Shown in pieces: positions 2,029-30,136 of a DNA stretch of 64,000 nt (the first letter of the stretch is position 1; the number at the start of each line of letters is the position of its first letter). Origin of the DNA: an uncultured Bacilli bacterium (GTDB lineage Bacteria; Bacillota_I; Bacilli_A; RF39; UBA660). The notes under the pieces are model-generated. The model was not told the origin of the DNA. It made no database searches and saw only the letters and a list, made by a program, of their open reading frames with translations. The translations under genes and the position numbers were made by a program. Location: contig CANRDD010000001.1 in NCBI GenBank assembly GCA_947629305.1, positions 6,311 to 70,310 on the forward strand. The letters run 5' to 3'.

Positions 2029-3636
2029 CTATTTTTTATTATTAATTGAAGCTTTAATAAAGCCAACAAATAAAGGATGAGGTCTAGTTGGTCTACTTTT
2101 AAATTCAGGATGGAATTGACTAGCAATAAAAAATTTATGATGAGGATATTCAATTATTTCTACTAAATTACTAGCTTCATTTATTCCTGATAAAACTAAA
2201 CCATTTTCTTCTAATATCTTTTTATAATTATTATTAAATTCATAACGATGACGATGTCTTTCTAATATTTTATCTGTTTTATATAAATTATAAGCTAAAG
2301 TATTTTTACTTATTGTACATTCATAATTACCTAATCTTAATGTTCCTCCCATATTAAGAATGTATTTTTGATCCGCCATAAGGTCAATAATGGGATTTGC
2401 ACAAGTTTCTTTAAATTCTGTTGATGTTGCATCTTCTAAATGACATACATGCCGAGCAAATTCAATAACCGCTAGTTGCATCCCAAGACATATACCTAAA
2501 TAAGGAACATCATTCACTCTTGCATATTCAATAGCTTTAATTTTTCCTTCAATTCCTCTTGATCCAAATCCCCCAGGAACAAGTATACCCGTTACATCTT
2601 TAAATATTTCTTTTAAATTAACATCTGGTTTTTCTAAGTTTTCGGCATCAATAAACTTAATATTTACTTTATAATTAAATTTATATCCAGCATGTTTTAA
2701 AGATTCAATGACGGATATATAAGCATCATGTAATTCAATATATTTTCCAACTAAAGCAATACTAACTTCATCTTTTAAATTATTTACCGTATTAATTAAA
2801 TTTTGCCATTCTTTTAAATCAGCTTTCTTTAAATCTAATTTAAATTGTTTTAAAATAATTTCATCTATTTTTTGATTATAATAATTAATAGGTATTTCAT
2901 ATATATTTTTAACATCAATAGAATCAATAATATTTTCTAAAGGAACACTACAAAAAGTAGATATTTTTAATTTTAATGATGCTGGTGTTGCAAATGGTGC
3001 TCTTAAAACTAAAGCATTAGGATAAATACCTAAACCGGTTAAATCTTTAACACTATTTTGGGTTGGTTTACTTTTTAATTCTTCTGATCCATAGATAAAA
3101 GGAACTAAAGTGGTATGTACAATAAATATTTCTTCATTACCAAGTTCATGTTGCATTTGTCTTATAGCTTCTAAAAAAGTTAAAGATTCAATATCTCCAA
3201 CCGTACCACCAATTTCGGTAATAACTATGTCAGCATTAGAAGAAACCCCAGCTTCAATTATTTTATTTTTAATTTCATTTGTAACATGAGGTATCATTTG
3301 CACTGTTGCCCCTAAGTATTCCCCTTTTCTTTCTTTTTCAATAACTGATTTATATATTTTCCCACTGGTAATATTTGATGAATAATTTAATTCTTCATCT
3401 ATAAATCTTTCATAATGTCCTAAATCTAAATCTGTTTCACAACCATCATAAGTTACAAAAACTTCCCCATGCTGAATCGGATTCATTGTTCCTGGATCCA
3501 CATTAATATAAGGATCAAACTTTTGCATAAATACCTTATAACCTCTTGCTTTTAATAATAAAGCAATTGATGATGCTGTTATACCTTTTCCTAAACCAGA
3601 GACCACTCCTCCAGTTACAAATACATATTTTGTCAT
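2029..3636 (-). CDS. pyrG: CTP synthase
   Basis: N-terminal [19 protein letters not shown]; glutamine amidotransferase C-terminal domain (GICLGMQ); 535 aa. Confidence 0.95.
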
Positions 3637-3720
3637 TAAATACTCCTTTTACAATGAGAGTACTATAGGCTCTCTTAAATTATAACATATCCCCCAAATT
3701 AAAAAAAGACTAATTAGATT

Positions 3721-4170
3721 TTATTCTAAATTAGCCTCATCATTTTCATCTACAATCATTAAATCTGCTAAATCATCATCTTCAACATCATCTGTATCTT
3801 CATCTTTATCATAGAAAATATCTTCTTCTTCCTCATCTTCATCTATATCATCAATGACTTCATCATTAACATCATCAACAATTTCTTCATCTTCTTCCAT
3901 ATCTTCAACAACCATATTTAAATTATGTCTTGATTGTAAATCCCAATAGCCATTTTCTAACATAACAAATTTTTTATTAATAGACATTTTTTCAAAAAAA
4001 GCAATTAATTCTTCTTCATAAACACTATCTGGTAATTCTAATGCTTCACATATTTTCTTAAATATATCCTTTAAAGTCATTTTCTTTCCAGATTCTTGTA
4101 ATACAATTAAAGCAATATCATCATAACTCATTAATTCTAATTCATCTTTAGGAATATCCCTTAATTTCAT
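3721..4170 (-). CDS. rpoE: DNA-directed RNA polymerase delta subunit (HARE-HTH N-domain plus polyacidic tail)
   Basis: N-terminal SYDDIALIVLQESGKKMTLKDIF...NGYWDLQSR; Asp/Glu-rich C-terminal half; adjacent to pyrG as in B. subtilis. Confidence 0.8.
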   Translation of the reverse strand: MKLRDIPKDELELMSYDDIALIVLQESGKKMTLKDIFKKICEALELPDSVYEEELIAFFEKMSINKKFVMLENGYWDLQSRHNLNMVVEDMEEDEEIVDDVNDEVIDDIDEDEEEEDIFYDKDEDTDDVEDDDLADLMIVDENDEANLE

Positions 4171-4185
4171 TTTTATCCTTCTTTC

Positions 4186-5790
4186 TTACATTTTTTCAGG
4201 AGGTATAACCCCAATTAAATTTAACGCATTAAAGATGGTAATTTGTACCCCTTTAATTAAATTTAATCTTTCCAAAGTTTCTTCTTCATTATCTGTTAAT
4301 ATCCTTATTTGTTGATAATAATTATGAAATAATGTTGCTAGTTCATAAACATAATTAACAATTAAATGAGGTAATTCCTTTAAAGCAGCCATTTTAACTA
4401 CATCTGGGAATTCATAAACTTTTTCTAAAACATTATATGTTATTTCTTCATTTAATGCAACATATTTTGTAATATTTTTAGATAACTCTTTTTCTTTTAA
4501 TATAGAACATATTCTTGCATAAGCATAACTAACGTAATATACAGGGTTTTCATTAGACTTAGCTTTAGCTAAATTAAGATCAAAATCCATTTGAGTATCT
4601 AAACTATATTTAGCAAAATAATAACGAGCAGCATTAACCCCAACTTCAGCAATTAATTCTTTTAAAGTAACGGATTTACCTGTTCTTTTACTCATTTTAA
4701 CAACTTCACCATTTTCGACTAAACGAACTAATTGTAATAATTTAACTTCTAAAAGATCAGGATCATTACCTAAGGCTTTAACACTACTTTTAAGACGAGC
4801 CACATAACCATGATGATCAGTTCCTAATATATCAATAATTTTTGTATAACCTCTTTTATATTTATCATAATGATAGGCTATATCTGGTACTAAATAAGTA
4901 AGACTTCCATCTTCTTTAATTAATACATGATCTTTATCATCATAAATACTACTACATTTAAACCAAGTAGCTCCATCTTGTTTATATATATATCCATTTT
5001 TATCTAATTTATTAATTATTTCATAAGGATCATATTCTTTTCTAATCTCTTTTTCACTCGTTAATTTATCATATTCTATTCGATATTCTTTTAAATCATC
5101 TAATATTTTATTTAATAATTCTTTTATACCTAATTCTTTAAAAAATTCTAAATCTTTATCTAATGCTTTATCTTGATATTCATTATAAATTTTTGTAGCT
5201 AATTCTTTTATTTCTGAACCAAAATAGCCACCTTCTGGCATTTCTTCTTTAATCCCACATAATTCCTTATAACGACAAAGAATTGATAAACCTAAGTTAT
5301 TAATTTGATTACCTGCATCATTAACATAATATTCTTTGGTAACATCATATCCAGAAAAAGCCATGATTCGAGCTAAAGAATCACCATAAGCTCCTCCTCT
5401 AGCATTACCTAAATGTAATATTCCCGTTGGATTAGCACTAACAAATTCAATATTAACTTTTTGCCCTTCTCCTATATTACTTCGACCATAATTTTCTTTT
5501 TCTTCTAATACTTTATTTAAATTTGTAAATAAATAATCTTTGCGAACAAAAAAATTAATAAATCCAGGTTCTTTTACTTCTATCTTTATAATATCTTCAT
5601 CATTTATTTTATCTTTAATCCATAAAGCTATATCCATTGGTTTTTGTTTAAATATACTAGCAAGTTTCATGGCAATATTACTGGCATAATCCCCATGAGA
5701 TGCATCTTTACTCTTTGTTACTTCTACATCTATATCTATACCTTTTTCTTTTATTACTTCTTTTATTATATTTATTAATTTATCTTTCAT
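4186..5790 (-). CDS. argS: Arginine--tRNA ligase
   Basis: PTGILHLGNARGGAYGDSLARIM (class I HIGH region of ArgRS); KMSKRTGKSV; DALR anticodon-binding C-terminus; 534 aa. Confidence 0.9.
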   Translation of the reverse strand: MKDKLINIIKEVIKEKGIDIDVEVTKSKDASHGDYASNIAMKLASIFKQKPMDIALWIKDKINDEDIIKIEVKEPGFINFFVRKDYLFTNLNKVLEEKENYGRSNIGEGQKVNIEFVSANPTGILHLGNARGGAYGDSLARIMAFSGYDVTKEYYVNDAGNQINNLGLSILCRYKELCGIKEEMPEGGYFGSEIKELATKIYNEYQDKALDKDLEFFKELGIKELLNKILDDLKEYRIEYDKLTSEKEIRKEYDPYEIINKLDKNGYIYKQDGATWFKCSSIYDDKDHVLIKEDGSLTYLVPDIAYHYDKYKRGYTKIIDILGTDHHGYVARLKSSVKALGNDPDLLEVKLLQLVRLVENGEVVKMSKRTGKSVTLKELIAEVGVNAARYYFAKYSLDTQMDFDLNLAKAKSNENPVYYVSYAYARICSILKEKELSKNITKYVALNEEITYNVLEKVYEFPDVVKMAALKELPHLIVNYVYELATLFHNYYQQIRILTDNEEETLERLNLIKGVQITIFNALNLIGVIPPEKM

Positions 5791-6156
5791 TTAGACATCT
5801 TTCCTTTGAATAATTAAAGTTTTTATATCATCATCAAAATTATACTTTAATTTTATTTCCTTATTATTATCTACATATTCACATTCTATATCAATATCAC
5901 AACTTTCCCCATTTAAAAAGATAAAACTCCCTATTTTTTTCTTAAAATCAATAATCATTTTATATTCTTTTGTTATTCTTTGATATATTTTATTTTCCCT
6001 ATCAATAATTTGTTTAGGTTCTTCATCAATAACTATTTGGGAATTATCAAAACTAGTTAATAAATCATTTTGCCAAACTATTTGTTCATTACTTAATAGT
6101 TTCCAACTAACCATTTCTTTCAAAAGACAAGTTCCTCCCTTGTTTTTCGAGAACAA
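5791..6156 (-). CDS. Hypothetical protein (possibly DUF1934-like, position conserved upstream of argS in Firmicutes)
   Basis: ORF abutting argS start (1 bp gap); no recognisable motif; call based on position only. Confidence 0.3.
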   Translation of the reverse strand: MFSKNKGGTCLLKEMVSWKLLSNEQIVWQNDLLTSFDNSQIVIDEEPKQIIDRENKIYQRITKEYKMIIDFKKKIGSFIFLNGESCDIDIECEYVDNNKEIKLKYNFDDDIKTLIIQRKDV

Positions 6157-6250
6157 TTATAGCATGATATATTTTACTTGTAAACTAAAAAATTTCTTAT
6201 ATTAAAAAGAATACTATTATTTATTACTTAAATAGTATTCTTAATTATTA

Positions 6251-9200
6251 TTAATCTTTTTTTAAAGTTAATACTTTATTATCATCAGTTGCTATATCTA
6301 TCATAGTATCTAAAAAAACATTTATATTATCTTTATATATTAATAATACTTTTCTTGTTACATCTATTACTTCCGCGGGTTCTATATTTAAAAAGGATGA
6401 GATAGATTCCGTGGAAAAACATTTACCATCTATATATCCTAATTTTAAAGCAATAATAACCGCTTCTTTAACTGATAAAGTACTCATCATTTGCGTAAAT
6501 GATGGAGCTCTTAATAATTCTAATAATTTTAAAGAATCTTCTCTTGTCATCTCTATCTTTGTAAATTTTGATTCTATTTTAGGTTCTGTTTTAGATATTA
6601 AATCCCCATTTACTTGTTCTGTTTGAGACAATTCATTCTTAATCCTATTTTCTCTTTCCTTAGTTGAATTTTCTAATAACCTGCGCATTTTCGGTACTAA
6701 CGTATTATAAAACTTAGCACTTAATGTTCTATTTAATTTTGTTGAAACATGTTTATTTAAATCATCTCCATAACGAAGTCTTAATAATTCTTGATCATTT
6801 TCATTTAATTTGGTTAACATTTCATCTATTTGTTCTTTAGAATAATCTTCAAAATATTCATATATTGTTTTTATTGGTCCTTCTTTGGTAGGATTTTCTA
6901 ATAATCTGCGCATTCTTGGTACTAACATATTATAAAATTTATTACTTTGTTCTTTATTTAATTTGGTTGAAATAGGATTATTTAAATCATTACCATAACG
7001 AAGTTTTAATATTTCTTTTTCTTCTTCATTTAATTTGGTTAACATTTCATCTATTTGTTCTTTAGAATAATCTTCAAAATATTCATATATTGTTTTTATT
7101 GATCCTTCTTTAGTTGGATTTTCTAATAATCTTCGCATTCTTGGTAATAATGTACCATAAAATTTAATACTTTGTTCTTTATTTAATTCTGTTGAAATAG
7201 GCTTATTTAAATCATTACCATAACGAAGAGTCAACATTTCTTTTTCTTCTTCATTTAATTTGGTTAACATTTCATCTATTTGTTCTCTAGTATATGTTCC
7301 AAAATATTCATATATTGTCTTTATTTTTCGCACTTTTTCTTTTTTCCTTTCAACTATTTTTTCTTCATTTCCATTTATTTTTGATTCAGTTTCTATTCTT
7401 TTACTTTTATTTTTTCCTTTTCTTTCTTTTGTTGGATTCTTTAGTAATCGCTTCATTCGAGGAATTAATATATTATAAAATTTTATGCTTTGATCTTTAG
7501 TTAATTTTGTTGAAACAGGATTATTTAAATCTGCTCCATACCTAAGTCTTATTAATTCTTGATCTTCTTCATTTAATTTTAATATCACTTCATCTACTTC
7601 TTCTTTAGGATAGTCTTCAAAAAGTTCATATATTGTTTTTATTGTTCCTTCTCTAGTAGGATTTTCTAATAATCTTCGCATTCGAGAAATTAATAAACTA
7701 TAAAATTTTGTACTTTGGTCATTATTTAATTCTGTTAAAGCTGGATTATTTAAATCTTCTCCATAACGGAGCTTTAATATCTCTTTTTCTTCTTCATTTA
7801 ATCTTGTTATTACTTCATCTACTTGTTCTTTGGTATATGTTCCAAAATGTTCATATATTGTTTTTATTCTTCGAGGTTGTTCAGTTACATTCTCTTTCAT
7901 TTTTAAGCTATTTTCTTTTAAAGTAGCCCTTTTAGGATTATCTGTTTCTCTATAAATTGTTCTATATTTATCTATATTTTTTAAAGATAAATCGGGATAA
8001 GGTGTATATAAAGCTAAATCTTTAACATATTTTGACCATCTAATACGCATCAAAGCTGTGGCTTCAATTTGTTGGATTCTTTGTCTAGTTAAATGATATT
8101 TTTTACTTATTTCATTAAAAGTCATAGGTTTTTGATTATCAAACCCACATCGCATCTTTAATACTTCTATTTCCATTGGTTTCAAATTACAATTATCAAA
8201 TAAGTTTTGCACTATATCCGGCAAAGATTCATTTATAATTATTTCTTCAGGAGTCTCAGTTGAACTTGGTATTAAATTTTCTAACTCCGTGTCCTCTTCA
8301 TCATTAACAAAATTATTAATACTTACTGTATCAACTTGCAAATTAGATAATTCTGAAACAAATGAAACAGATAATCCCATTTCCTTAGCTATTTCATTTA
8401 TAGTTGGATTTCTACCTAATTTTTCTTCCAATTTAGTTATTGTTTTTTTATATAATGCTATCTTTTCATGCAAGTGCACGGGTATTCTTACATTTCGACC
8501 TTTATCCGCGATAGATCTAGTTATAGCTTGTCTTATCCACCATGTAGCATAGGTTGAAAATTTATAATTTTTATTTAAATCAAATCTATCTACCGCGGTC
8601 ATTAAACCAATGTTACCTTCTTGAACAAGATCTAAGAAAGAAAGGCCCCTTCCATAATATTTTCTAGCTATACTAATTACTAATCTTAAATTACTTTCAA
8701 TAAATAATTTTCTCGCATTATAATCACCTAGAGCCATTTTATTAAGAAGATCTTTTTCTTGTTCATCTGTGAGAAGTGGTCTTTTCCCAACTTCCCTAAA
8801 ATACATATCTGTGGCACTCATAACACCTAAATATTCTTCATCATAGGCATTTTCATTTACATTTTCTAATTCATTTATGTCAATATTATTTAACATACAA
8901 TATGTATCTATAATTGACTCTAATAAATTATCATTAAATTGTTCATCTACATTACCAGATTTTAATTGTTTATAATATTCTTTAAATACAACTATAATCA
9001 TTTTATTAAAAATACTATTTTCATTTATAAGTTTAATTAATAAATCTATACTTGGAACATAATTATAACTTTCTAAAAATCTACTTAATTTTTTAAAATT
9101 TTTGATTGCTCCTTCATAATTTTCTATTTTTATAAATTTTTGATTTATATAATTATTTAATAATATAAATGATTGATTTGCATCTAAAAGCATATTTTTA

Positions 9201-9433
9201 GTAATTTTAGCTATTTTAATTTTAATTTGTTTATTTATATATTCATTATAATTTGGTACACCTTTATATGTTTTTTTAGAAATATCAATTTCATTTAAAA
9301 CTAATTTTTCATAATCTTCCCTCGAAATATTTAAATACTTTGTCGATATATATATTTTATTAATAACAGGCATAATTATTTCATATATTTGTTTTGAATC
9401 TAATTCTTGAATATTATATAAATTTAATTCCAT
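6251..9433 (-). CDS. RpoD-family (group 1/2, SigA-like) sigma factor with unusual ~200-aa N-terminal domain and ~450-aa C-terminal extension of five tandem ~75-aa degenerate region-4-like repeats plus a terminal region-4-like domain
   Basis: Region 1.2 ([12 protein letters not shown]); region 2 ([17 protein letters not shown]...[19 protein letters not shown]); region 3; region 4.2 ([30 protein letters not shown]); then repeats [71 protein letters not shown] x5; C-terminal [45 protein letters not shown]. Confidence 0.85.
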
Positions 9434-9458
9434 TTATTTTCTCCTGTTCTAAAGATTA

Positions 9459-11006
9459 TTAATCTTTTTTTAAAGTTAATACTTTTTCTTTTCTTTTTTC
9501 TTCTGTAGCTATTTCTATTACATTATCTAAAAAACTATTTAATAATACTTTCTTTGTTATATCTATTACTTCTTCTGGTTCTATATTTAAAAAGGCCGAG
9601 ATAGATTTCGTGGAAAAACACCTGCCATCAATATACCCTAATCTTAAAGCTATAACTACGGCTTCTTTAACAGATAAAATCTTCATCAATTGAGCAAAGG
9701 ATGGTGCTTTTACTAAATCGATTAACTTCAAACAGTCTTCTTTAGTTATTTCAATATTATTAGTTTCTGATACTGTTTCTTTTTGCCCTAATTCTTCTTT
9801 AATTTCTAAAACTGGTTTCTTAACTTCTTTTTTAATTCTTTGTGTTCTTTTTCCTGTTGGATTTTCTAATAACTTCTTCATTCTTGGTACTAATACACTA
9901 TAAAATTTATTACTTTCTTCCTTAGTGAGTTTTGTTAAAACATGCTCATTTAAATCATCACCATACCTAAGTCTTATTAATTTCTTATCTTCTTCACTTA
10001 ATTTACTTAACATTTCATCTACTTGTTCTTTAGAATAATTATTAAAATGTTCATATATTGTTTTTAATTTTATTAAATTTGTATTTGGGTTTTTTAATAA
10101 TCTTTTCATTTTAGTTGCTAATAACCCATAGAATTTATAACTTTGTTCTTCTGTTAAATTGGTTGAAGATGAAATATTTAAATCTTCGCCAAAACGAAGT
10201 CTGATTAATTTCATCTCTTCTCCATTTAATTTTGTTAACATTTCATCTATTTGTTCTTTAGAATAATTTCCAAAATATTCATATATTGTATTAGCATTTC
10301 GTCTTTTTCTTTTGCCACTTTCAATTATATCTAATTCTATTATATCTTTATCCCTTAATTTTTCTCTTAATTCCTTAACTGTCTTGATAATTATTCGGGA
10401 AACATATGACTGAGAAATGTTTAACATCTCGGCAATTTCCTTTTGGTTATAAGTCCGATTATTATAAAAACCAAAATGAAGTTTAATGATTTTTTTACTT
10501 TTATCTGGTAATTCATTTATTAATTCTCTTAAAACTTGATAAAGATTAGATGTTTCATTATTATCTATATAATCACCTGCGAAGTCTTTACCATCACTAA
10601 GATAATCTTCCAACTTAATTTTACTACCATCACGATTTTGAAAAATAACTTTATCTAAACTTTCAATTTTCTTATCTTTATCTAATTTTCTTAAAAACAT
10701 TATTATTTCATTATCAATACATCTAGAAGCATAAGAAGAAAATCTAATATTTTTTGATATATCAAAAGTATCAACAGCTTTAAATAACCCTAAAATACCT
10801 ATAGATACTAATTCTTTTTTTTCATAATCAACTGTTTTAAATTTATTTGTTACTTCATATAAAACTAATCTAGTATTATGTTCTATTATTTTATTTCTTG
10901 CTTCATTATCACCATTTTGGGCTTGTTGAAGCAAATCACAAAATTCTTCATCAGATAATAATTTAGGTAATTTATGTCCATCTATAAATATTTCTTCTGT
11001 ACTCAT
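9459..11006 (-). CDS. SigE/SigK-family (sporulation-type, group 3) sigma factor paralog with C-terminal extension of two region-4-like repeats plus the same terminal domain as the upstream sigma
   Basis: LSDEEFCDLLQQAQNGDNEARNKIIEHNTRLVLYEVTNKF (region 2, SigK/E/G-like); YASRCIDNEIIMFLRKL; region 4 IIKLHFGFYNNRTYNQKEIAEMLNISQSYVSRII; then [22 protein letters not shown]...LIRLRFGEDLN repeats; C-terminus ~70% identical to that of the 1060-aa protein (both end VLTLKKD). Confidence 0.8.
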   Translation of the reverse strand: MSTEEIFIDGHKLPKLLSDEEFCDLLQQAQNGDNEARNKIIEHNTRLVLYEVTNKFKTVDYEKKELVSIGILGLFKAVDTFDISKNIRFSSYASRCIDNEIIMFLRKLDKDKKIESLDKVIFQNRDGSKIKLEDYLSDGKDFAGDYIDNNETSNLYQVLRELINELPDKSKKIIKLHFGFYNNRTYNQKEIAEMLNISQSYVSRIIIKTVKELREKLRDKDIIELDIIESGKRKRRNANTIYEYFGNYSKEQIDEMLTKLNGEEMKLIRLRFGEDLNISSSTNLTEEQSYKFYGLLATKMKRLLKNPNTNLIKLKTIYEHFNNYSKEQVDEMLSKLSEEDKKLIRLRYGDDLNEHVLTKLTKEESNKFYSVLVPRMKKLLENPTGKRTQRIKKEVKKPVLEIKEELGQKETVSETNNIEITKEDCLKLIDLVKAPSFAQLMKILSVKEAVVIALRLGYIDGRCFSTKSISAFLNIEPEEVIDITKKVLLNSFLDNVIEIATEEKRKEKVLTLKKD

Positions 11007-11038
11007 ACTGATTCTCCTTATCTTTAGAAGAAGTATAT

Positions 11039-13684
11039 TTATTTCTTTTTTGGTAATAAAGATAAAACTAATTCCATATTATTATCATCTTTTCGATATT
11101 GATAAAATCTTTTATTTTTTCTTACTTCTTCTAATATTTTCTTTGTTTTTTCACTCTTATTTTTACTTTTTTCAACTGAATTTAAAAATATATCTCCTTT
11201 ATCATTAATTCCTTGCATATAAAATTCTCTTGCATAAATAAGTTTAATAATATTTGCCTCTTCTAAGGTTAAACCTAATTGCAGAGATGCTGTTTCAACA
11301 TCTAATCCTGATTCAATAATAAAGTCATTTATTTTTGGAAAATTAAAACCATAATAATTAACTAACTTATTATAATCAAAATCTTCTTCAAGCATTTTAA
11401 AGATAGGTTTTCGATCTTCTACATCTATTTCCCCTTTTAATGCCATGATAAGATCTTGATAATCATAAGGCAAATTTTCTTGTTTTGCTAAGCTATTGGC
11501 CACAGTTAAATATTCTATTGCTATTTTCTTTTGATATTTTTTCGTATAAGCAAAACCTAATTTAGCATAGACAATGGCTCGAGGACTTTTAAACATTTGT
11601 AGTAATTGTAAATATTTTTCTATGCATTCATTATAATTTCCTTCACTATAAGCTTTATTTCCTAAATTTATAAGTTCTTTACCATTAACATATCCTTGAA
11701 TTTTTGGTTTATATCTTAAAACTACTTGTTGTTCATTACCTTCACCAATTACAAAAGCAACCATATCCTTATAATTTTCCATCATATCCATTATTCTCTT
11801 AATTTTATTTTCAGGCATAGGATTTAATAAGATAATACTTTTTTTAACAAGTAATTCCGCATATTTTTTATCTATATATTTTTTTAAATTATCTTTTTCA
11901 GGAATCATTTCTTCTTTAGGTATTTCTGTTCTTTGTTCTTGAACTTGAATTTTTTCCTCTTGAGGTAACAAAACTTCTTCTTTTTCTTTCTTTGGTTCTT
12001 CTTTAATAGTAGGTTTTTGAATTCTAGTTCTTTCTTCTTTTTCTTTCTTTGGCTCTACTTTAGAAGCAAAATTTGGCAAACTAGCTCCATCCTTTTTTTG
12101 ATTATTTTCTAAAGCTATATTAAATATTTCTAATTCTTTATTATTTTGCTTATTATCTAACATTTTTTCTGATATTTCTAATATTTGATATAATCCATCT
12201 GTGATAACACAGTCTTGACCTAACTTATTACCTTTAGTAATTATATCTAAATAAACTCTTGCTTCAGCCAATTTATCTTGAGATAACTTAATATAAAATT
12301 CTTGAATATAGGTTGCTATATCAAAAGAATAATTATCTTTACTAACTAAAGTTAAGGCCATCATTGGTTTGGTAAAAGTAATATCTTTTTCTAATAAACT
12401 AATTTTAATTAAATCAATAATTAAAAATTCATAATCACTTTTATTTAAACTATTTAAATAAGTTCTTAAGAATTTTAAAGAATTTTCTAAATCACCTTTC
12501 ATTAAATATGTAATAATATTTGCCAAAGAAGGATCAGCCTTTTTTATTGTTGGTTCAGCTTCCTTAACCTTATTTTCTTTAACTGGATTATTTTCGAAAA
12601 TAGGCTTAGTTTTTTCCCTTAATTCTTGATTAGAATTATTTTCCAAGTTATTAATTGAACTTGTTTTTTGTTCCTTTTTAGCACTTTTTCTTATATTATT
12701 ACAACTATTAACTATTTCGACAAGTAACAAATAAATTGAATCATCATTACTAACCTTAAATTTAGCATTCTTTTTCTTAATTAAATCTAAAGCTAATTCA
12801 TAATTTTGGCCATCAATTGCATTAAAAAAATCATTAGTATTATATTCTTGAATTTCAGGAATAATTTTTGTTTTATTAATATTTAATAAATCTTTTGTTA
12901 AAATATAAACATAACTTTCGGAAATACTTAAACGATGCGAAGCTTCTCTTTTTTTATAAAAATCTATTATATCTTGATATTGTTTTTGTTTAATTAAATT
13001 TATGATTTCCTTTCGATTTTTATTTTGAACATCAAGGGCTTGGATAAGTAAATTCTTAATTAATAAATCTTGAACTTTAATAGATCCTTTATCTCGAATT
13101 AATTCATTTAATTGAAGAAGAGCTAATGAAAATCTTTGATTAAGAGCTGACAACCTCATTTTATTTTGCTTAGGTATATTCTCATATCTTTTATCATTAT
13201 AATCGACTCTAATATCATCATATTCTAAATATTTAGCATATTCTTGATATTTTTCAGGAATATCCGTGATCATATTTAATAAGTATAAATAATAATTACA
13301 ATCTATATTATAAAATTCATTTTCACTATCTTGAAAAATATCATAATAGACAAAAGCTTTCTTGTAATCTTTCTCATTAATACATTTTAAAAATAAACGA
13401 AAAGCTACCCCTTTGTGGCGTGGATCTAATTCAAAACATTTTTGAAAACATAAATCAGCTTTAGCATATTCTTTTTGAGCAATTAAAGTCTTTCCATAAT
13501 AAAATAAGTCATCTACTGATTTTAAAGAATATAAACCTCTTCTAACTCTTATAATTTTTTCTTGATCAATTAAATCTTTTAAATCTTTAGAATTAAAACC
13601 AAGACTATTTAATTCTTTAGTTGTTAATTCTTTTTCTTCTAAAACATTATTATATAATTTAGTTAAACTTTCTTCATTAATCAT
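11039..13684 (-). CDS. Large TPR-repeat protein with N-terminal AbiEi-like winged-helix DNA-binding domain
   Basis: N-terminus LTTKELNSLGFNSKDLKDLIDQEKIIRVRRGLYSL matches AbiEi_4-type wHTH signature (...RxRRGxY); multiple TPR-like helical repeats (e.g. YYGKTLIAQKEYAKADLCFQKCFELDP, LGNKAYSEGNYNECIEKYLQLLQM); Lys/Glu-rich linker; 4-bp overlap with upstream gene. Confidence 0.55.
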   Translation of the reverse strand: MINEESLTKLYNNVLEEKELTTKELNSLGFNSKDLKDLIDQEKIIRVRRGLYSLKSVDDLFYYGKTLIAQKEYAKADLCFQKCFELDPRHKGVAFRLFLKCINEKDYKKAFVYYDIFQDSENEFYNIDCNYYLYLLNMITDIPEKYQEYAKYLEYDDIRVDYNDKRYENIPKQNKMRLSALNQRFSLALLQLNELIRDKGSIKVQDLLIKNLLIQALDVQNKNRKEIINLIKQKQYQDIIDFYKKREASHRLSISESYVYILTKDLLNINKTKIIPEIQEYNTNDFFNAIDGQNYELALDLIKKKNAKFKVSNDDSIYLLLVEIVNSCNNIRKSAKKEQKTSSINNLENNSNQELREKTKPIFENNPVKENKVKEAEPTIKKADPSLANIITYLMKGDLENSLKFLRTYLNSLNKSDYEFLIIDLIKISLLEKDITFTKPMMALTLVSKDNYSFDIATYIQEFYIKLSQDKLAEARVYLDIITKGNKLGQDCVITDGLYQILEISEKMLDNKQNNKELEIFNIALENNQKKDGASLPNFASKVEPKKEKEERTRIQKPTIKEEPKKEKEEVLLPQEEKIQVQEQRTEIPKEEMIPEKDNLKKYIDKKYAELLVKKSIILLNPMPENKIKRIMDMMENYKDMVAFVIGEGNEQQVVLRYKPKIQGYVNGKELINLGNKAYSEGNYNECIEKYLQLLQMFKSPRAIVYAKLGFAYTKKYQKKIAIEYLTVANSLAKQENLPYDYQDLIMALKGEIDVEDRKPIFKMLEEDFDYNKLVNYYGFNFPKINDFIIESGLDVETASLQLGLTLEEANIIKLIYAREFYMQGINDKGDIFLNSVEKSKNKSEKTKKILEEVRKNKRFYQYRKDDNNMELVLSLLPKKK

Positions 13685-14682
13685 TTCTTTATTCCTCCCT
13701 TTAACCTTTTTAATTTTATTTGTTCATTTTTGGAAAAACCTTCTTTATCAAATTCATTTGATAAAGATACAGGATACATGGTAATAATATCTTTTGTTCC
13801 AAGCATCGTAACTACACATAAATCATTTGTAATTGTCTCATTTTTATAACCAATTGGTGTATCTAATCTAAATCGGTACATATCTGATACTTCAAAATGA
13901 TTTGCATTCATATTTTCAATTATTACTCTTGCATCTAATAATAATTTCTTTAAATCAAGATATTTAAAGAAACAACCATTGGTATTCTTTTCTTCTTGGT
14001 TTTGATGTTTTGCTATATGGAATAATAATAATTCTTCACTATGATCATATAATCTATATATCATATAATCTTTTTCTTTATCATAATTATTATCTAATAA
14101 CTTTAATTTTCCTAAATAATATTTTATATAATTATTTAAAATATCATAATGTTGTGTTAACTTTGGAGTTAAAGAAGACCTATCAATTTTCATAATATAT
14201 TGTTCAGCTTGATAAAAATCTTTTTCAAGTATTTTTAAACAAATTAAGCCTTTAGTTGCTTGAATATAAAACTTAGGATTTAATTGCAAAGTTTGATACA
14301 TTCTCTCAGCAATAGAATAATCACCAGTTTGCACATTAAGTTTAGCTAAAGCCATAAGAGCTTTATATTGTAATTCTGGGGAAGTCATACATTCCCTATA
14401 ATATTTTTTACTTTGTTCAAAATTATTTTCAATATTTTCTAATAAGCCATATAATAATTTAAATATAGGTTTATCTTGATCAGGATTATTATTTAATATT
14501 TCTCTAGCTTTTGCATATTTACCTTCTCTAAGTTCAATTTGAATAAGTTTTGTTAAAGACTGAACTCTAAAACCATCATGTTGATAAGATATATTAAACC
14601 AATATCTAGCATTTATATAATCATTAGTATTATAATATTCTAATCCTTTAAAAAAGGCTTCTTTTAAATCTTTATTTGTCAT
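13681..14682 (-). CDS. TPR-repeat protein (Rap/RRNPP-like size, 333 aa)
   Basis: Repeated TPR-like helices (FFKGLEYYNTNDYINARYWF, KALMALAKLNVQTGDYSIAERMYQ); translationally coupled (4-bp overlaps) on both sides. Confidence 0.5.
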   Translation of the reverse strand: MTNKDLKEAFFKGLEYYNTNDYINARYWFNISYQHDGFRVQSLTKLIQIELREGKYAKAREILNNNPDQDKPIFKLLYGLLENIENNFEQSKKYYRECMTSPELQYKALMALAKLNVQTGDYSIAERMYQTLQLNPKFYIQATKGLICLKILEKDFYQAEQYIMKIDRSSLTPKLTQHYDILNNYIKYYLGKLKLLDNNYDKEKDYMIYRLYDHSEELLLFHIAKHQNQEEKNTNGCFFKYLDLKKLLLDARVIIENMNANHFEVSDMYRFRLDTPIGYKNETITNDLCVVTMLGTKDIITMYPVSLSNEFDKEGFSKNEQIKLKRLKGGIKK

Positions 14683-15680
14683 CTTTTTAAAACCCGACTT
14701 AAATTTTCATAATATCCTTGATCATTAACTGAGGATAAATCCTGTACTTTTCCTTGATAATCATTTAAACAAAGACCATCAGGTGTAAAATAACATATTT
14801 GACAACATTTCATATCCGGATAAATTTTTAAAGGCATTGTTGTTTTAAGACCTAAATGCCAGTATCCTTTGTAGCCAGTGGAACCTAAGCCAGCTGAACA
14901 ATGGACATGTTCACCAAGTCTTCCTAAAGAACTTCGGCCATTTAAAACTGGGATTAAATTATAAGTTTCTGTCCATTCATTAGTTCTAGCCATATATATT
15001 TCATCAGGATATAAATAAAAACCATTGTCATTAATTTCTACTTCTTCAATAGGATTATTCTTTTTTAAATCTAAAACATTATCCCTAAAAAAAGCTATTC
15101 TTTTATTTAAAGTTAAATTAACAGAATTAGGATTAATAACAATATTATCTTTATTGGAAATAATAATATCTCCTTGTTCCATTCTCTTCATTATTTCTTT
15201 CCCACTTAACATACCTATATCTAAAGAATTATCTAAACTTCTAAAAAAAGCTAAATTACCTATTTCCATATTAGGATAAATATAAATAGGTTTAGTACAA
15301 GTAATACATAATAATAAATAATCATTAAAATGATCATCTTTATATTCATTATTAAGACTAATACTAATTCCAAGTAATGATAATGATACTTTGCCATTTA
15401 GAAAAGGAACAAAACCATTGGTTTTAACTTTTTGTTCTGTTTGGGCTAAATAAACTTTACCAGGTTCTAATAAAAAACCAGATTTAGGTATTTTTTCTTC
15501 TTTTAAACCATGGGTATAACCATTTTTAGTATCGACTAAATAATCATCTTCTTGATAATAAAGAGTATCACCTAAATTAAGACGACAACTATTAGGTTTA
15601 TCTAAAGAATTATCTTTTAAATTAGTTATTTCAATATGACCTAAAGCCATTTGTTTTTTTATTTCTTCATTTGTTAACAT
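14679..15680 (-). CDS. Tandem two-domain dCTP deaminase/dUTPase-fold protein (Dcd-Dcd fusion) with degenerate catalytic residues
   Basis: Both halves start with a Dcd N-terminal signature (LTNEEIKKQMALGHIEI...; LSGKEIMKRMEQGDIII...). Second half retains GRSSLGRLG (Ser/Ser/Arg motif) but has HLGL where the catalytic VLEF Glu is expected. First half lacks both motifs. Confidence 0.6.
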   Translation of the reverse strand: MLTNEEIKKQMALGHIEITNLKDNSLDKPNSCRLNLGDTLYYQEDDYLVDTKNGYTHGLKEEKIPKSGFLLEPGKVYLAQTEQKVKTNGFVPFLNGKVSLSLLGISISLNNEYKDDHFNDYLLLCITCTKPIYIYPNMEIGNLAFFRSLDNSLDIGMLSGKEIMKRMEQGDIIISNKDNIVINPNSVNLTLNKRIAFFRDNVLDLKKNNPIEEVEINDNGFYLYPDEIYMARTNEWTETYNLIPVLNGRSSLGRLGEHVHCSAGLGSTGYKGYWHLGLKTTMPLKIYPDMKCCQICYFTPDGLCLNDYQGKVQDLSSVNDQGYYENLSRVLKR

Positions 15681-15681
15681 A

Positions 15682-16218
15682 TTACTTTCTTCTTTCTAAT
15701 TTAGGAACATATTCTCTTTCAATCCGTGATTCTGTGGCTTTAACTTGTCCTAAATATTTACCCTTATATTCAATAGAATTATCCCCGATTAAAGGAAAAT
15801 AATATAAACGGCCGATAGGCATATTAGGATAAACTTTGGTTGGATAAGTGCAAACAATTTCAAGTGTCCATGTTCCTTCAAAACCATGATCACCAAATCC
15901 CGCGGTTACATGAATTTCCATGCCAAGAGCAGCTAGCTTATCAATACCACCTAGTAAAGGAACAAAATTATAAGTTTTAGTATATTCATTGGTTCTCCCT
16001 AAATATAATTTACCTGGCTCTAAAACTAAACCTTCTTCAGGAATAAGAATTTTTTGGGTAGGATTACTTTTCTTAATATCTAAAAAGGGTTCAGTATATA
16101 CTTTTAAATCATTAGCAAGTGTTACATTAAGATAATTTTCTCCTAACGTATCTTCATTTACTTTATAAATATCGATATTATGAGGATAATTAGCTATTAT
16201 TTCATTTCTACTTAACAT
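15682..16218 (-). CDS. dcd: dCTP deaminase (single dUTPase-fold domain)
   Basis: IHVTAGFGDHGFEGTWTLEIVCTYPTKVYPNMPIGRLYYF matches the Dcd core including the catalytic Glu (TLEI); the SSxR motif is replaced (GGIDKLAALG); 178 aa. Confidence 0.65.
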   Translation of the reverse strand: MLSRNEIIANYPHNIDIYKVNEDTLGENYLNVTLANDLKVYTEPFLDIKKSNPTQKILIPEEGLVLEPGKLYLGRTNEYTKTYNFVPLLGGIDKLAALGMEIHVTAGFGDHGFEGTWTLEIVCTYPTKVYPNMPIGRLYYFPLIGDNSIEYKGKYLGQVKATESRIEREYVPKLERRK

Positions 16219-16232
16219 AATTATTACTTCCT

Positions 16233-17420
16233 TTAAATCTTTCTGGTTAAAGATATACCTTCTTTAAATTTACATTCAGATGGACAAGTAAAATTAGGAA
16301 ATGTACAACGAGATCCATGCGAATATTTAACTAATTCCGCATATATTTTTTGATCATTAGGGCTTTTTGATGCCTTTAAAGTATTAACATATTTTGTTAA
16401 TACTTCTTTTGTAATTTGCATAACTTCTAACTGAGGTGCTGTACAAATTCTTTCAAATAATTTTAAAATAAAATCTTCATATTTACCTGTTTCATTAACA
16501 TTTACGAGTAACCCTTGAGGATAATCCGATAAACTTGATATATCTTTTAACCATTCTTGGGATAAATAATCATTATCTCTAATAATAATTGGTACATAAT
16601 ATTCTTTTGTTTCTTTTAATGATAAAGAATAATCTAAAGTTCTATGTCTTAATAAATCGGCTAAAGCAACAAATGTCGCATCATAATTGACTGAGTAACT
16701 CCGGCTAAAGTGATCATCATAAGTATTATCATCTTGAATTAAAGAAAAATGTCTATTACGATAATCTTTAATATCTTGATCAATAAAACCTGTACTTAAT
16801 AAAGCCTTTTGAAACTCTTTTAAATAAGGCTTTAATTCTTGAATTAAAGGATTATTTGTATCTTCATTTAACATTTTAATTGTAAAATCATAAATATAAT
16901 TTAATTGTCTAAATGATGTTGTATATTTTAATTTAGTTCGCATAAATACTGACAACAAATAACGGGCATTTTCTTTAGCTTTTTTATCTATCATAGCTGG
17001 AGTTAAATAAACATTATCAGGATAAACCTTAGTTATTTCTTCTTTAAATATTTTATGCCATTTACGATATAATTCATTTTCTTCTTCTGTTCCAAACATT
17101 GTTGTATAACGTCCTGATTTTTCCGAAGTATTATATTCATGTTCATTATTAATCATCATCGCTAATAACTTGGGAATATTTTCAAAATATATTTGAATTG
17201 TATCATGCCCAAAGACCGAATGATGTCTATTTTTTTTATTACCATCTGCCCTATTTAACGTTTTTTCAATTGGTTCTTTTAATATTTCATCATAATTTTT
17301 AGCCGTATAACAAATATTTGCTGAATGTCCCCCGTTGATTTCTAAATCTTTTAAACTAGTTTCCTTGATTATTTCTTCATCTGTTGTAGTTATACCTACT
17401 ACTTTTGCATTTATTTCCAT
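16233..17420 (-). CDS. ThyX-like (flavin-dependent thymidylate synthase family) divergent paralog. RHR motif not conserved. Extra ~170-aa C-terminal region
   Basis: Alignable to the ThyX core: HHSVFGHD (cf. GHETPFEH) ... NNEHEYNTSEKSGRY (cf. FRHRIASYNELSGRY). SGRY is conserved but RHR reads NEH. Likely start MEINAKVVG at 17420 with GGAGG RBS; longer ORF to 17492 is possible. Confidence 0.5.
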   Translation of the reverse strand: MEINAKVVGITTTDEEIIKETSLKDLEINGGHSANICYTAKNYDEILKEPIEKTLNRADGNKKNRHHSVFGHDTIQIYFENIPKLLAMMINNEHEYNTSEKSGRYTTMFGTEEENELYRKWHKIFKEEITKVYPDNVYLTPAMIDKKAKENARYLLSVFMRTKLKYTTSFRQLNYIYDFTIKMLNEDTNNPLIQELKPYLKEFQKALLSTGFIDQDIKDYRNRHFSLIQDDNTYDDHFSRSYSVNYDATFVALADLLRHRTLDYSLSLKETKEYYVPIIIRDNDYLSQEWLKDISSLSDYPQGLLVNVNETGKYEDFILKLFERICTAPQLEVMQITKEVLTKYVNTLKASKSPNDQKIYAELVKYSHGSRCTFPNFTCPSECKFKEGISLTRKI

Positions 17421-17546
17421 TATTCCTCCCATAGCCCCCTTTTTAGTTCTAAATCTACTTAAAATTTTATCAAATATATCACTAAAAATCAATTCCCTTA
17501 GGAATTTTTTTCCAAAACTATTCCATAATAAAAAAGGTGATATCTT

Positions 17547-25991: not shown

Positions 25992-26020
25992 TTGTATTTT
26001 TTATAATTATAACTTATAAT
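25992..26020 (+). promoter_or_regulatory. Sigma-A type promoter (TTGTAT-17-TATAAT), copy 1 of a duplicated ~35-bp promoter element
   Basis: ttgtat 25992-25997, 17-nt spacer, tataat 26015-26020; RBS taggaga and ATG at 26055 follow; near-identical copy at 26920-26948. Confidence 0.6.
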
Positions 26021-26054
26021 TTAATATAAGAATAAATTGTATAGGAGAATGATA

Positions 26055-26750
26055 ATGAAAAAATTAGGTATTTTAACTATTTTCTTATTTTTAATAATTA
26101 TAAATATAACTTATAATTATAATCAAAATAAAGAAATACTAGTAGGAGAAAAAGAAGCAAAAATTGAAGAAACTAATAGTTCTATTGCTATAATGTTACA
26201 AAATGAAGAAGGAGAATATATTAAATCAACGGATAATGAATGGCCAAAGGATGGTTATACCTTTAATGAAACATATTCTAGTTGTGAAAATGGTAGTAAA
26301 CTTTCATGGAATATAAAAACTGGAGAAATAACCTTAATAAGTAATATTAGTGATAAATGTTATGTTTATTTTGATAAAAAGAAAAATGAACCTTTAGAAA
26401 TAGAAAATGTTGAAGTTGATAATAAAAGTACATATAATACTGTAAAACTAACTGTTAAGGCAACAGGTGGAACAGGAAAAATTAGTTATTCAGTTGAAAA
26501 TACTTGTACTAGATGTAATGACTCTGTAGATAGTTGTGGATATGATTCAACTAATGGAGACATTTCAATTAATAATAATATTATTACTATTAATAATTTA
26601 AATAGTTGTTATACACATAGTTTTACTGTTAAAGCTCAAGACGAGGTTGGCGCCATAGTTACTTCTCAAGTGTCAGATATTAGTGTTTCTAGTTATGCTT
26701 TATCAGAACCATGTGCTCCATGTGGTGTGGATCCTAGTACTAAAAATTGA
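26055..26750 (+). CDS. Hypothetical secreted/membrane-anchored Cys-rich protein
   Basis: N-terminal hydrophobic segment KKLGILTIFLFLIIINIT; start chosen at third in-frame ATG (26055) with RBS aggaga; ends at TGA followed by ~55 stop-free codons interrupted only by a second TGA. Confidence 0.5.
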   Translation: MKKLGILTIFLFLIIINITYNYNQNKEILVGEKEAKIEETNSSIAIMLQNEEGEYIKSTDNEWPKDGYTFNETYSSCENGSKLSWNIKTGEITLISNISDKCYVYFDKKKNEPLEIENVEVDNKSTYNTVKLTVKATGGTGKISYSVENTCTRCNDSVDSCGYDSTNGDISINNNIITINNLNSCYTHSFTVKAQDEVGAIVTSQVSDISVSSYALSEPCAPCGVDPSTKN

Positions 26751-26919
26751 AATCTTCCAAGTTTATGTCCTTCATGCAATACTGAAGTTGGTGGTTCTGG
26801 TTCTAGTTCTACTGATTTTAATTGATTAATTAGAAAAACTAAAATTATTAGAGAATATAATATTTCTGATATTTGTCTATTCTTTTCATTTGATATTTTC
26901 TTGGATAAAGCATTATAAC

Positions 26920-26948
26920 TTGTATTTTTTATAATTATACTTTATAAT
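26920..26948 (+). promoter_or_regulatory. Sigma-A type promoter (TTGTAT-17-TATAAT), copy 2 of duplicated element
   Basis: ttgtat 26920-26925, 17-nt spacer, tataat 26943-26948; 33/35 identical to the 25987-26021 element; RBS aagagg and ATG 26982 follow. Confidence 0.6.
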
Positions 26949-26981
26949 TTTGTTATAATAATTATAAAATAAGAGGTTAAA

Positions 26982-27620
26982 ATGAAAAAGAAAAGTTTAT
27001 TAATCATATTATTTAGTTTAATAATTATAATTGGAGGTCTTTTAGTTAGTAAAGCAGCCTATTCTTTTCTTGGTCCTAAAATAGATCAAGATTTAATTCA
27101 AAAAGGTGTTATTGTTAATACTGAAGGTACCTTAATCTTTGTTCCTGGTGATGATTTAAATTTAAATCCATCTATTGATAATTTTAATTCTACGACCAAA
27201 AATTTAGTTAGTAGTACTAAACCTAAAGTAATATTTTTAAAAAATGAAAAAGAACCAGATAAAACAAGTGAAAATTATTATGTTGGTTTTCGAATAAATA
27301 ATAATAGTTATAAATATACAACAGATAATGAAACTCCAGAAGTAATATTAAGTATTATGGATGAAAATAATAATTATATTAATTCTATTAATAATTTAAA
27401 ATATATTGAAGAATATAATGGCTTTGATATAACTAATAAAAAAGATTTATATGATATAAATTTAAGTAAAGAAATAAGTTTACAAAATAATAAAACATCA
27501 GCAATACATAATTGGACTTTTACATTAACTTTTGTTAATTTAAAAACTGATCAATCATTAAATGAAACAGCTGAATTAGATATTGATTTATTATTTTTAG
27601 ATGAAAAACCAACTGTATAA
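26982..27620 (+). CDS. Hypothetical secreted protein (signal peptide/TM anchor)
   Basis: N-terminal MKKKSLLIILFSLIIIIGGLLVSKAAYS; no recognisable domain. Confidence 0.5.
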   Translation: MKKKSLLIILFSLIIIIGGLLVSKAAYSFLGPKIDQDLIQKGVIVNTEGTLIFVPGDDLNLNPSIDNFNSTTKNLVSSTKPKVIFLKNEKEPDKTSENYYVGFRINNNSYKYTTDNETPEVILSIMDENNNYINSINNLKYIEEYNGFDITNKKDLYDINLSKEISLQNNKTSAIHNWTFTLTFVNLKTDQSLNETAELDIDLLFLDEKPTV

Positions 27621-27650
27621 AAAAACAGAAATATTAAATTCTGTTTTTAT
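27621..27650. terminator. Bidirectional rho-independent terminator between convergent genes
   Basis: aaaaaACAGAAatattaaaTTCTGTttttt: 7-bp stem, 8-nt loop, A-run on the left and T-run on the right. Confidence 0.6.
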
Positions 27651-28252
27651 ATTGGTTTAATAACTACATGTCTATTAGGTTCTTCCCCTTCACTCTCAGT
27701 TTTAACCCCTTTAAAATTAGTTAAACAATTATGAATTATTCTTCTTTCATAACTAGTCATATTATCTAATTTTATTTCCATTTTTGTTTTAACTACTTCT
27801 TTAGCTAATTGAATAGCCATTCTTTCTAAATTCTTTTCTTTTTTAGCTTTATAATTTTCTACATCTAAACTAATTTTATAACGTATACCATATTTTACTT
27901 GAAGCATTTGTCTAACTAAAGCTTCTAAAGCTTTAATAGTACCTCCATTTTTACCTATTAAAATTGGATTATTATTAGAATACATTTTAATAACAGTTCT
28001 ATCTTCATTAATACTAACTTCAAAATTAACTTCTAAATCCCAATAATGTAATATATTATTTAAATATTCTTTTATTTCTTCAATAATATCTTTTTTTAAA
28101 TATAAACTAACTTCTACAATAGATCCTTGAAATAATTTACCTTTCTTTAATGTATGTGTATATACTACATCATCTAATTTTAAATTATTTTCTTCTAATA
28201 AACTATTTAATACTGTTTCTAATTCTTTTCCTTCCTTAGTTATTTTTTCCAT
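27647..28252 (-). CDS. jag: Jag/KhpB RNA-binding protein (KH + R3H domains)
   Basis: KH GXXG (IGKNGGTIKAL); R3H (SYERRIIHNCLTNF...EGEEPNRHVVI); conserved yidC-jag pairing. Confidence 0.85.
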   Translation of the reverse strand: MEKITKEGKELETVLNSLLEENNLKLDDVVYTHTLKKGKLFQGSIVEVSLYLKKDIIEEIKEYLNNILHYWDLEVNFEVSINEDRTVIKMYSNNNPILIGKNGGTIKALEALVRQMLQVKYGIRYKISLDVENYKAKKEKNLERMAIQLAKEVVKTKMEIKLDNMTSYERRIIHNCLTNFKGVKTESEGEEPNRHVVIKPI

Positions 28253-29279: not shown

Positions 29280-29280
29280 C

Positions 29281-29607: not shown

Positions 29608-29623
29608 AACAATTACCTTTTTT

Positions 29624-29646
29624 TAAAAAAACCACTGTTAAAGTGG
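29624..29646 (-). terminator. Possible attenuator/terminator hairpin between rpmH and rnpA
   Basis: On minus strand CCACTttaacAGTGG followed by TTTTTTTT; short 5-bp stem. Confidence 0.3.
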
Positions 29647-29651
29647 CTTCA

Positions 29652-29774: not shown

Positions 29775-29889
29775 TTTATAATTCTCCTCTTTCTCTTTAA
29801 GCGTTATTAATATATCATTAACTAGTCCTAAAAGTCAAGTTAAATTGGTTTATTTTATTAATATATAATAAGGATAAAAAGGTATTATT

Positions 29890-30070: not shown

Positions 30071-30136
30071 TTTTTATCAATTTTTTCTTTTCTTTTTAAA
30101 AATTTTATATTACAATTTATATAGACAGGTAGTGGG

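Follow-up and report, generated by a model that had tools for sequence, protein, structure and literature searches.

Promoters, activators, anti-sigma factors, phage proteins, and the beta flap of RNA polymerase all act on sigma-70 factors through one hub, region 4. Among extracytoplasmic function (ECF) sigma factors, those without an anti-sigma factor carry regulatory C-terminal extensions, and the tetratricopeptide repeat (TPR) extension of ECF42 has been proposed to act through protein interaction (PMC8999054). Here, we analyzed a 64,000-nt stretch of DNA (the window; contig CANRDD010000001.1, positions 6,311–70,310 of the forward strand) from an uncultured Bacilli bacterium of the RF39 lineage, in which the gene p1 (nt. 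6251–9433, minus strand) encodes a tailed, RpoD-like sigma factor of 1060 amino acids (aa), as defined by the list of open reading frames (ORFs), Pfam regions, and matches to SigA structures in the PDB. The p1 protein is a sigma-70 factor whose putatively regulatory extension consists of tandem pseudo-region-4 modules, a material without precedent. As in the extended ECF sigma factors, this would be a regulatory or interaction domain of the protein's own instead of a separate anti-sigma factor, and some p1 relatives are also fused to TPR regions. The cores here, however, are RpoD-like and SigE/K-like, not ECF, and the extension is a duplicated region 4 in variable tandem number, a type not listed among the known extensions (PMC8999054). 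Both p1 and its tailed neighbor p2 depart from the minimal sigma-2/sigma-4 core of ECF factors, given p1 has regions 1.2 and 3 and p2 is closest to SigE/SigK.

The RpoD-like core of p1 (nt. 8024–8812; Pfam, phmmer against the PDB, and NCBIfam), which like all p1 features lies on the minus strand, comprises region 1.2 (aa 208–237, nt. 8723–8812), region 2 (aa 244–313, nt. 8495–8704), region 3 (aa 323–397, nt. 8243–8467), and a canonical region 4 (nt. 8024–8239, with the Pfam match at aa 417–465), each located with Pfam. The presence of these regions in order places p1 in the sigma-70 family as an RpoD-like (group 1/2) member, and in phmmer searches of all PDB chains aa 204–473 aligned with Clostridioides difficile SigA (E 1e-66) and aa 208–469 with Bacillus subtilis SigA (211 bits). 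With group 1/2 factors such as SigA/RpoD, RpoS, and HrdA-D, p1 shares regions 1.2, 2, 3, and 4 and a conserved region 2 motif, and the −35 helix TRER[IV]RQIE is conserved in most p1 orthologues. In contrast to these factors, p1 has no region 1.1 and an unrelated 205-aa N-terminal domain instead, it adds a 590-aa tail, its gene lies away from dnaG, and it scores below the NCBIfam RpoD cut-offs. The region 4.2 helix of p1 itself (aa 449–457) reads TRQRIQQIE, where nearly all p1-type orthologues have TRER[IV]RQIE, and p1 has MRCGF where orthologues have LR[YF]GF; given these changes, its own −35 reading may be altered. The N-terminal domain (aa 1–205, nt. 8819–9433) is of no recognized kind and had no match in Pfam, and hhalign found neither kinship with region 4, the repeats, or the end domain nor an internal repeat. 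It is retained in orthologues (36–58% identity) and is confined to the RpoD-like tailed sigma factors.

The tail begins with a 51-aa spacer (aa 471–521, nt. 7871–8023) that leads from the canonical region 4 to the first two of five degenerate region-4 modules of 75 aa each, R1 and R2 (together nt. 7421–7870; R1, aa 522–596, nt. 7646–7870; R2, aa 597–671, nt. 7421–7645). A K/E-rich linker of 31 aa with an isoelectric point (pI) of 10.1 follows (aa 672–702, nt. 7328–7420), and then the repeats R3–R5 (together nt. 6653–7327; R3, aa 703–777, nt. 7103–7327; R4, aa 778–852, nt. 6878–7102; R5, aa 853–927, nt. 6653–6877). A variable linker of 30 aa (aa 928–957, nt. 6563–6652), predicted to be disordered (model confidence score pLDDT <50), joins the repeats to an acidic end domain of ~100 aa (about aa 958–1060, nt. 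6254–6562) with a complete sigma-4 fold. At the DNA level, Tandem Repeats Finder reported two arrays of 225-nt units, at nt. 6656–7325 (3 copies, 88% matches) and nt. 7454–7872 (1.9 copies, 82% matches). Between themselves, the p1 repeats are 57–83% identical in protein and 74–89% in DNA, with synonymous divergence (dS) of 0.2–0.65 and ratios of nonsynonymous to synonymous divergence (dN/dS) of 0.34–0.76. An earlier sequence-only reading of this DNA had recognized core regions 1.2, 2, 3, and 4.2, a non-homologous N-terminus of ~200 aa, and five tandem repeats of ~75 aa, all of which were borne out; its C-terminal extension of ~450 aa is in fact about 590 aa long (aa 471–1060), and the 1060-aa ORF it placed at nt. 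6251–9433 is real, with the strand now corrected to minus.

Within p1 lies an antisense ORF of 87 aa (nt. 8289–8552, plus strand), which is probably spurious. A scan for promoters and terminators gave matches no more numerous than in shuffled sequences; the best promoter-like site nearby (nt. 6156–6184, minus strand, TTTACA-17-TATAAT with TG) lies between the p1 stop codon and a 121-aa ORF and argS. The 121-aa ORF has its annotated TTG start where the −10 element of this site ends, making that start doubtful.

The repeats and the end domain both descend from sigma region 4. In Pfam, each single repeat matched only the first 22–27 positions of the Sigma70_r4 and r4_2 models (E 5e-4 to 0.06; 13–20 bits against gathering cut-offs of 24.1 and 25.7), a partial match that ends before the helix-turn-helix (HTH) and falls short of a whole-domain assignment, and the NCBIfam RpoD models matched the same stretch. 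The end domain had no Pfam match. In profile comparison with hhalign, a profile built from 94 repeats aligned with the canonical region 4 of the same proteins at 94.5% probability (E 8e-8, 49 columns), and the end-domain profile aligned with the same region 4 at 94.8% (E 5e-8) over 48 columns spanning the HTH. When a profile combining a single repeat with the end domain was searched against all PDB sequences, 33 of the 34 matches were sigma-A region 4, the top match being Thermus SigA (E 8e-8), reached via the end domain. The sequence-only reading's view of the repeats as degenerate region-4-like modules, and of the terminal ~100 aa as region-4-like, is thus upheld by profile comparison, with the Pfam check on the repeats giving only sub-threshold, partial matches.

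Structure models agree with this origin. An AlphaFold2 model of R4–R5 (pLDDT 88) shows a 13-residue loop where the first HTH helix would be; the repeats, which are ~15–29% identical to real region 4, retain the region-4 helical scaffold (4.1 and the end of 4.2) while the HTH part has degenerated. Remote homology and a sigma-4-like fold together place them in the sigma region 4 superfamily. The end domain superposes on whole sigma-4 domains at 1.2–1.8 Å, including the sigma-4/flap-tip chimera 6ono_B, and has the complete sigma-4 fold with intact HTH geometry. A family member (P0104) carries repeats with the same N- and C-terminal motifs and a fully recognizable HTH (Pfam r4, 231 bits), which on sequence are evidently intermediate forms between region 4 and the degenerate repeats. 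Compared with region 4 (Pfam Sigma70_r4/r4_2) and small sigma-4-like proteins such as YlxM/UPF0122 (1xsv), the tail modules differ in that the repeats have a loop for the first HTH helix and have lost the DNA-contact residues, the end domain is acidic, and modules occur in arrays of 1 to at least 14.

Conservation within the tail was measured as the mean frequency of the commonest residue per segment across 25 aligned one-repeat orthologues. Values for the repeat (0.65) and the end domain (0.66) match that for the core (0.65), indicating that the folded tail modules are as constrained as the sigma core, followed by the N-terminal domain (0.50), the spacer (0.46), and the linker, which was the lowest of all segments (0.26). 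One repeat plus the end domain is maintained across about 40 species-level metagenome-assembled genomes (MAGs), and some tail residues are invariant over 18–33 distant sequences. Judged from these patterns and from the dN/dS between repeats, the tail is evidently under selection.

The tail is a family trait of an uncultured lineage, and the family is large and not previously described. When 1.84 billion cluster representatives were searched exhaustively with the repeat profile in HMMER, 1251 reached E ≤ 1e-3, of which 803 also passed E ≤ 1e-10. Repeat numbers in these proteins run from 1 to at least 14, and the set comprises RpoD-like sigma factors, SigE/K-like sigma factors, tail-only proteins, and fusions to TPR proteins. 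RpoD-like members usually have one repeat and, among the best 146 of the 1251 matches, up to 11 (P0054, 1474 aa); four proteins (P0054 to P0057) have 10–11, and the same best 146 include a repeat-only protein with 14 (P0058). Another protein of 1060 aa with five repeats is only 40% identical to p1 (P0081). The sequence-only reading had taken the protein to be singular, a view that these relatives overturn, and the idea that five repeats are exceptional is ruled out by the same proteins with five, 10–11, and 14 copies. A word-indexed search with the tail returned 53 proteins, mostly p2-kind sigma factors of ~460–490 aa, some tail-only proteins, and three metallophosphoesterases bearing a single repeat. 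Scanning one genome per species gave 70 loci, all in metagenome-derived uncultured genomes, mostly from animal and human gut, all at 22–33% G+C, and labeled mostly as Bacilli, Tenericutes, or Erysipelotrichaceae, with a few under other bin labels. The p1 architecture (N-terminal domain, RpoD-like core, and tail; typically 700–800 aa with a single repeat) accounts for 41 of these loci and the p2 architecture for 17, the remainder being tail-only or truncated (nine) or core-only fragments (three). Long unexplained segments of family members mostly had no match in Pfam, and no relevant paper came up in literature searches for sigma factors of this lineage that carry region-4-like repeats or extensions. 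No relatives of the tail were present in IMG/VR viral contigs, so a phage origin is not supported.

Several relatives depart from the standard form. At one locus (L077, nt. 6435–8621), the p1-type gene is cut by one in-frame TAA just after region 4, with the core (480 aa) and tail (P0012, 206 aa, internal ATG start) called as two genes, and a frameshift occurs at the same core/tail junction in L002; what is called a tail-only protein may in some cases be the product of a split sigma gene or of a sequencing error, or a true two-part version. A 716-aa ORF in L006 (CANPXR010000048.1) combines a p1-type N-terminal domain (51% identical to p1) and a tail with a core much closer to the canonical SigA of L077 (81% identity) than to the p1 core (45%), reflecting either gene conversion between paralogues or an assembly chimera. 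In an uncultured Mycoplasma sp. MAG (L063), a 167-aa ORF joins the first ~85 aa of a p1-type N-terminal domain to the end domain and looks like an internal deletion of the core and repeats. From another sample, a 1364-bp ENA contig (P0001) is 99% identical to the region of nt. 6653–7327 of the window, with R3 and R4 merged into a hybrid repeat; the copy is either lost via recombination between repeats or collapsed in short-read assembly. Finally, L043 (nt. 2561–7446) has three SigE/K-like sigma genes in tandem, the first of which (881 aa) has an end domain and no recognizable repeat, and the second of which is a standard p2-type gene.

The p1 protein is probably, judging from the gene content of its relatives, a paralogous, group-2-like, RpoD-like sigma factor and not the housekeeping SigA, given that related MAGs also carry a canonical sigA. 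In L077, the gene order is proS, dnaG, a 362-aa SigA with regions 1.1–4, trmK, and then a p1-type gene that is 58% identical to p1 over 479 aa, the N-terminal domain included. A canonical sigA likewise follows dnaG beside a p1-type gene in L042 and precedes trmK beside a p2-type gene in L029. The genes upstream of p1 are p2 and the TPR genes, not dnaG, and the window, which covers the replication-origin region, holds no RpoD-type gene besides p1. While p1 scores 211–229 bits against SigA structures, the L077 SigA scores 499 bits against that of B. subtilis, which makes the sequence-only description of the p1 core as very similar to B. subtilis SigA an overstatement. Similarly, p1 falls below the RpoD cut-offs of TIGR02393 (303 vs. 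354 bits) and PRK09210 (293 vs. 572 bits), and Pfam Sigma70_r1_1 (region 1.1) has no match in p1 and is present in the canonical SigA of L077. We therefore rejected p1 as the housekeeping sigma factor of a reduced genome, and with it the earlier assumption that p1 is the cell's SigA, as relatives keep a canonical sigA in dnaG-sigA or sigA-trmK order. Another long sigma-70-family protein with extra regions is MzaA of the MZA anti-phage system (NF041931), which matches the p1 core at 291 bits; however, p1 is far below the 800-bit cut-off, the match reflects the common sigma core only (aa 149–479), and no MZA partner genes were seen near p1 with NCBIfam and PADLOC.

Upstream of p1 on the minus strand lie three genes in the order TPR333, TPR881, and p2, the successive gaps down to p1 being −4, 32, and 25 nt. 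The nearest, p2 (nt. 9459–11006, 515 aa; ORF list, Pfam, and NCBIfam), encodes a SigE/SigK-like sigma factor with the same tail, comprising two repeats (nt. 10074–10298 and 9846–10070) and an end domain (about nt. 9462–9764), and the same adjacency recurs on an independent contig (L075). TPR881 (nt. 11039–13684, 881 aa; Pfam, PADLOC, and TPR matches in the PDB) has an AbiEi-like winged helix-turn-helix (wHTH) and TPR repeats, and TPR333 (nt. 13681–14682; Pfam) is a TPR protein of 333 aa; both are candidate partners of the tail. Of 22 loci, five have a TPR333 homologue adjoining a tailed sigma gene and three have a TPR881 homologue there, and in L002 the frameshifted p1-type gene is followed by a TPR333 homologue. 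Elsewhere in the family, the parts are fused: two proteins of 1717 aa (P0150) and 1987 aa (P0182) consist of an RpoD-like core, repeats, and a region of 650–770 aa collinear with TPR881, its wHTH end included; another has a TPR881-like segment within the tail (P0194), and a p2-like sigma factor carries repeats, TPR, and end domain (P0131). No defence-system assignment was returned by PADLOC for the p1 neighbors.

Directly upstream of the TPR genes, and in the same orientation, are two dCTP-deaminase-like genes (333 and 178 aa) and a long ThyX-like gene (419 aa; together nt. 14679–17492, minus strand), for which PADLOC gave no defence match. The replication-origin region occupies nt. ~26000–39600 of the window, with the cumulative GC skew minimum near 25–30 kb and dnaA at nt. 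30137–31510, followed by ORFs fitting dnaN, gyrB, and gyrA by size and position only, and mnmE and mnmG on the other side. Toward the end of the window (nt. 57740–64000), G+C falls to 19–20%, and two XRE-type HTH proteins (349 and 482 aa), a DUF4362 protein, and an AAA_14/DUF4143 ATPase are encoded; AAA_14/DUF4143 genes also flank the p2-type sigma gene in L001. In that locus (nt. 8001–17386), the p2-type gene (P0010) sits just upstream of a type VII secretion cluster comprising an acetyltransferase gene, WXG100 genes, and an FtsK/SpoIIIE (EssC-like) gene, and in L072 the same pair of an acetyltransferase and a 393-aa gene follows an island with a repeat-bearing metallophosphoesterase. The only Rfam matches in the window are a small signal recognition particle RNA and a T-box leader (nt. 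40101–40186 and 51650–51834).

The surface chemistry of the tail bears on whether it adds further −35 readers. Canonical region 4 is strongly basic (46 sequences, median pI 9.8, net charge +5), the repeats are nearer neutral (94 sequences, median pI 8.2, net charge +1), and the end domain is acidic (103 sequences, median pI 4.8, net charge −5), a difference that persists over the HTH span alone (pI 5.2 in the end domain vs. 10.0 in canonical region 4). In the hhalign alignment, the −35 contact positions, T-R-E-R-V-R-Q in the orthologues, become x-x-x-E-V-I-[DE] in the end domain, where R584, R586, and R588 correspond to a non-conserved residue, Glu, and Ile. The end domain therefore lacks the basic recognition helix and the R584/E585/R586/R588/Q589-type contacts of a −35 reader, while the repeats can be aligned in more than one register over the last helix and have at most two basic contact positions left. 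For the end domain at least, the non-basic charge and the lost contact residues speak against DNA reading of the −35 type, and by sequence the tail does not look DNA-binding.

The p1 tail is built from duplicated sigma region 4, and we tentatively interpret it as an arm for protein docking and regulation, not as a set of extra −35 readers. The occurrence of the tail on RpoD-like and SigE/K-like sigma factors, two classes unrelated to each other, as well as by itself and attached to a metallophosphoesterase, fits a portable interaction module. Under this proposal, the end domain would serve as a conserved acidic binding head on a disordered linker, and the repeats and linkers would set its reach and valency. 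The wHTH-TPR and TPR proteins (nt. 11039–14682) would be the most likely partners, tethering, activating, or sequestering the tailed sigma factors, and the tail-TPR pairing would replace the separate anti-sigma factors and activators that contact true region 4 in other bacteria. We infer protein rather than DNA binding by the tail, the identity of the partner, and the regulatory outcome alike, and our confidence in the statements on architecture and evolution is considerably higher than in the docking-arm explanation. Several points weigh against this explanation: under one of two possible alignments, two DNA-contact positions of the repeats stay basic; the repeats are mildly basic, and their conserved P-[KR]-M-[KR]-[KR]-L-L helix might contact DNA or the beta flap; the TPR link is partial, at the five and three of 22 loci noted above; most p1-type genes have no conserved neighbor among the 40 p1-type loci compared; and the fused proteins rest on metagenome gene calls.

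The sequence-only reading had suggested binding of several −35-like elements, multivalent beta-flap binding, or a scaffold or decoy role. In a flap-based reading, the extra modules would compete with the canonical region 4 on RNA polymerase or supplement it. If each module bound a beta-flap tip helix, either of its own enzyme, causing auto-inhibition or release of −35 recognition, or of others, causing polymerase clustering, tail-only proteins would be flap-blocking inhibitors. The 4.1 region and the C-terminal half of the 4.2 helix contact the flap in sigma-4/flap and AsiA structures, and these are the very parts of region 4 retained in the tail; the close superposition of the end domain on whole sigma-4 domains, 6ono_B among them, also speaks for this reading, and the presence of the tail on different sigma classes and non-sigma proteins would fit a universal partner such as core polymerase. 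Still, one flap per enzyme leaves 5 to 14 copies unexplained, the repeats have diverged to ~15–29% identity with real region 4, and the TPR fusions are left unaccounted for, so that we consider flap binding unlikely. We give even less weight to the sequence-only reading's view of the modules as extra DNA readers that bind several −35-like or upstream AT-rich elements and thereby add promoter contacts in a 25% G+C genome. Their descent from a DNA-binding HTH, the intact HTH geometry of the end domain, the conserved basic helix of the repeats (median pI 8.2), and the fully recognizable HTH of the P0104 repeats would suit this role, but the end domain is acidic as a whole and across its HTH, its three arginine contact positions are replaced, the repeat model has a 13-residue loop for the first HTH helix, and Pfam matches to the repeats end before the HTH.

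Region 4 is attacked by proteins such as T4 AsiA and phage G1 gp67, and an arms race with phage or other such proteins could have expanded and varied the repeats as decoys. Copy numbers that range from 1 to at least 14 between lineages, the possible copy-number variation between samples seen in P0001, the existence of tail-only proteins, and one repeat-bearing protein in an integrase-flanked island are in keeping with this idea. We nonetheless regard decoys as improbable, as the repeat surface is strongly unlike real region 4, making for poor mimicry, a single repeat is what the family typically conserves, the end domain equals the core in conservation, and IMG/VR viral contigs hold no relatives. 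Most improbable of all in our view is a functionally neutral expansion by slippery tandem duplication in which only the core matters. The low dS between repeats points to recent duplications or gene conversion, dN/dS is only moderately below 1, and in-frame stops or frameshifts separate core and tail in some relatives (L077 and L002), which a neutral array would explain; against it stand the retention, at the conservation level of the core, of one repeat and the end domain in about 40 species-level MAGs, the residues invariant across 18–33 distant sequences, and a family of 1251 clusters.

Taking the docking-arm proposal further, it is conceivable, although rather doubtful at present, that the tailed sigma factors form an unrecognized control system in a whole order-level lineage of uncultured gut Bacilli, with arrays of pseudo-region-4 modules as multivalent docking sites linking alternative sigma factors, and RNA polymerase via these, to wHTH-TPR partners or to other polymerases. 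If true, this would be a new form of recruitment or sequestration of sigma factors, reusing the target domain of activators and anti-sigma factors as a repeatable handle. Neither Pfam nor NCBIfam has a model for the domain family defined by the tail, and annotation of such proteins as “RpoD” or “sigma-70 family” would hide both the tail and their status as SigA paralogues. Unusually, this large and conserved family carries 1 to at least 14 copies of the region-4 hub, stripped of DNA-reading residues, at the C-terminus of two different sigma classes and in combination with TPR proteins. Such an arrangement suggests that sigma factors in these abundant, uncultured gut bacteria with small genomes are controlled in a way not yet explored.

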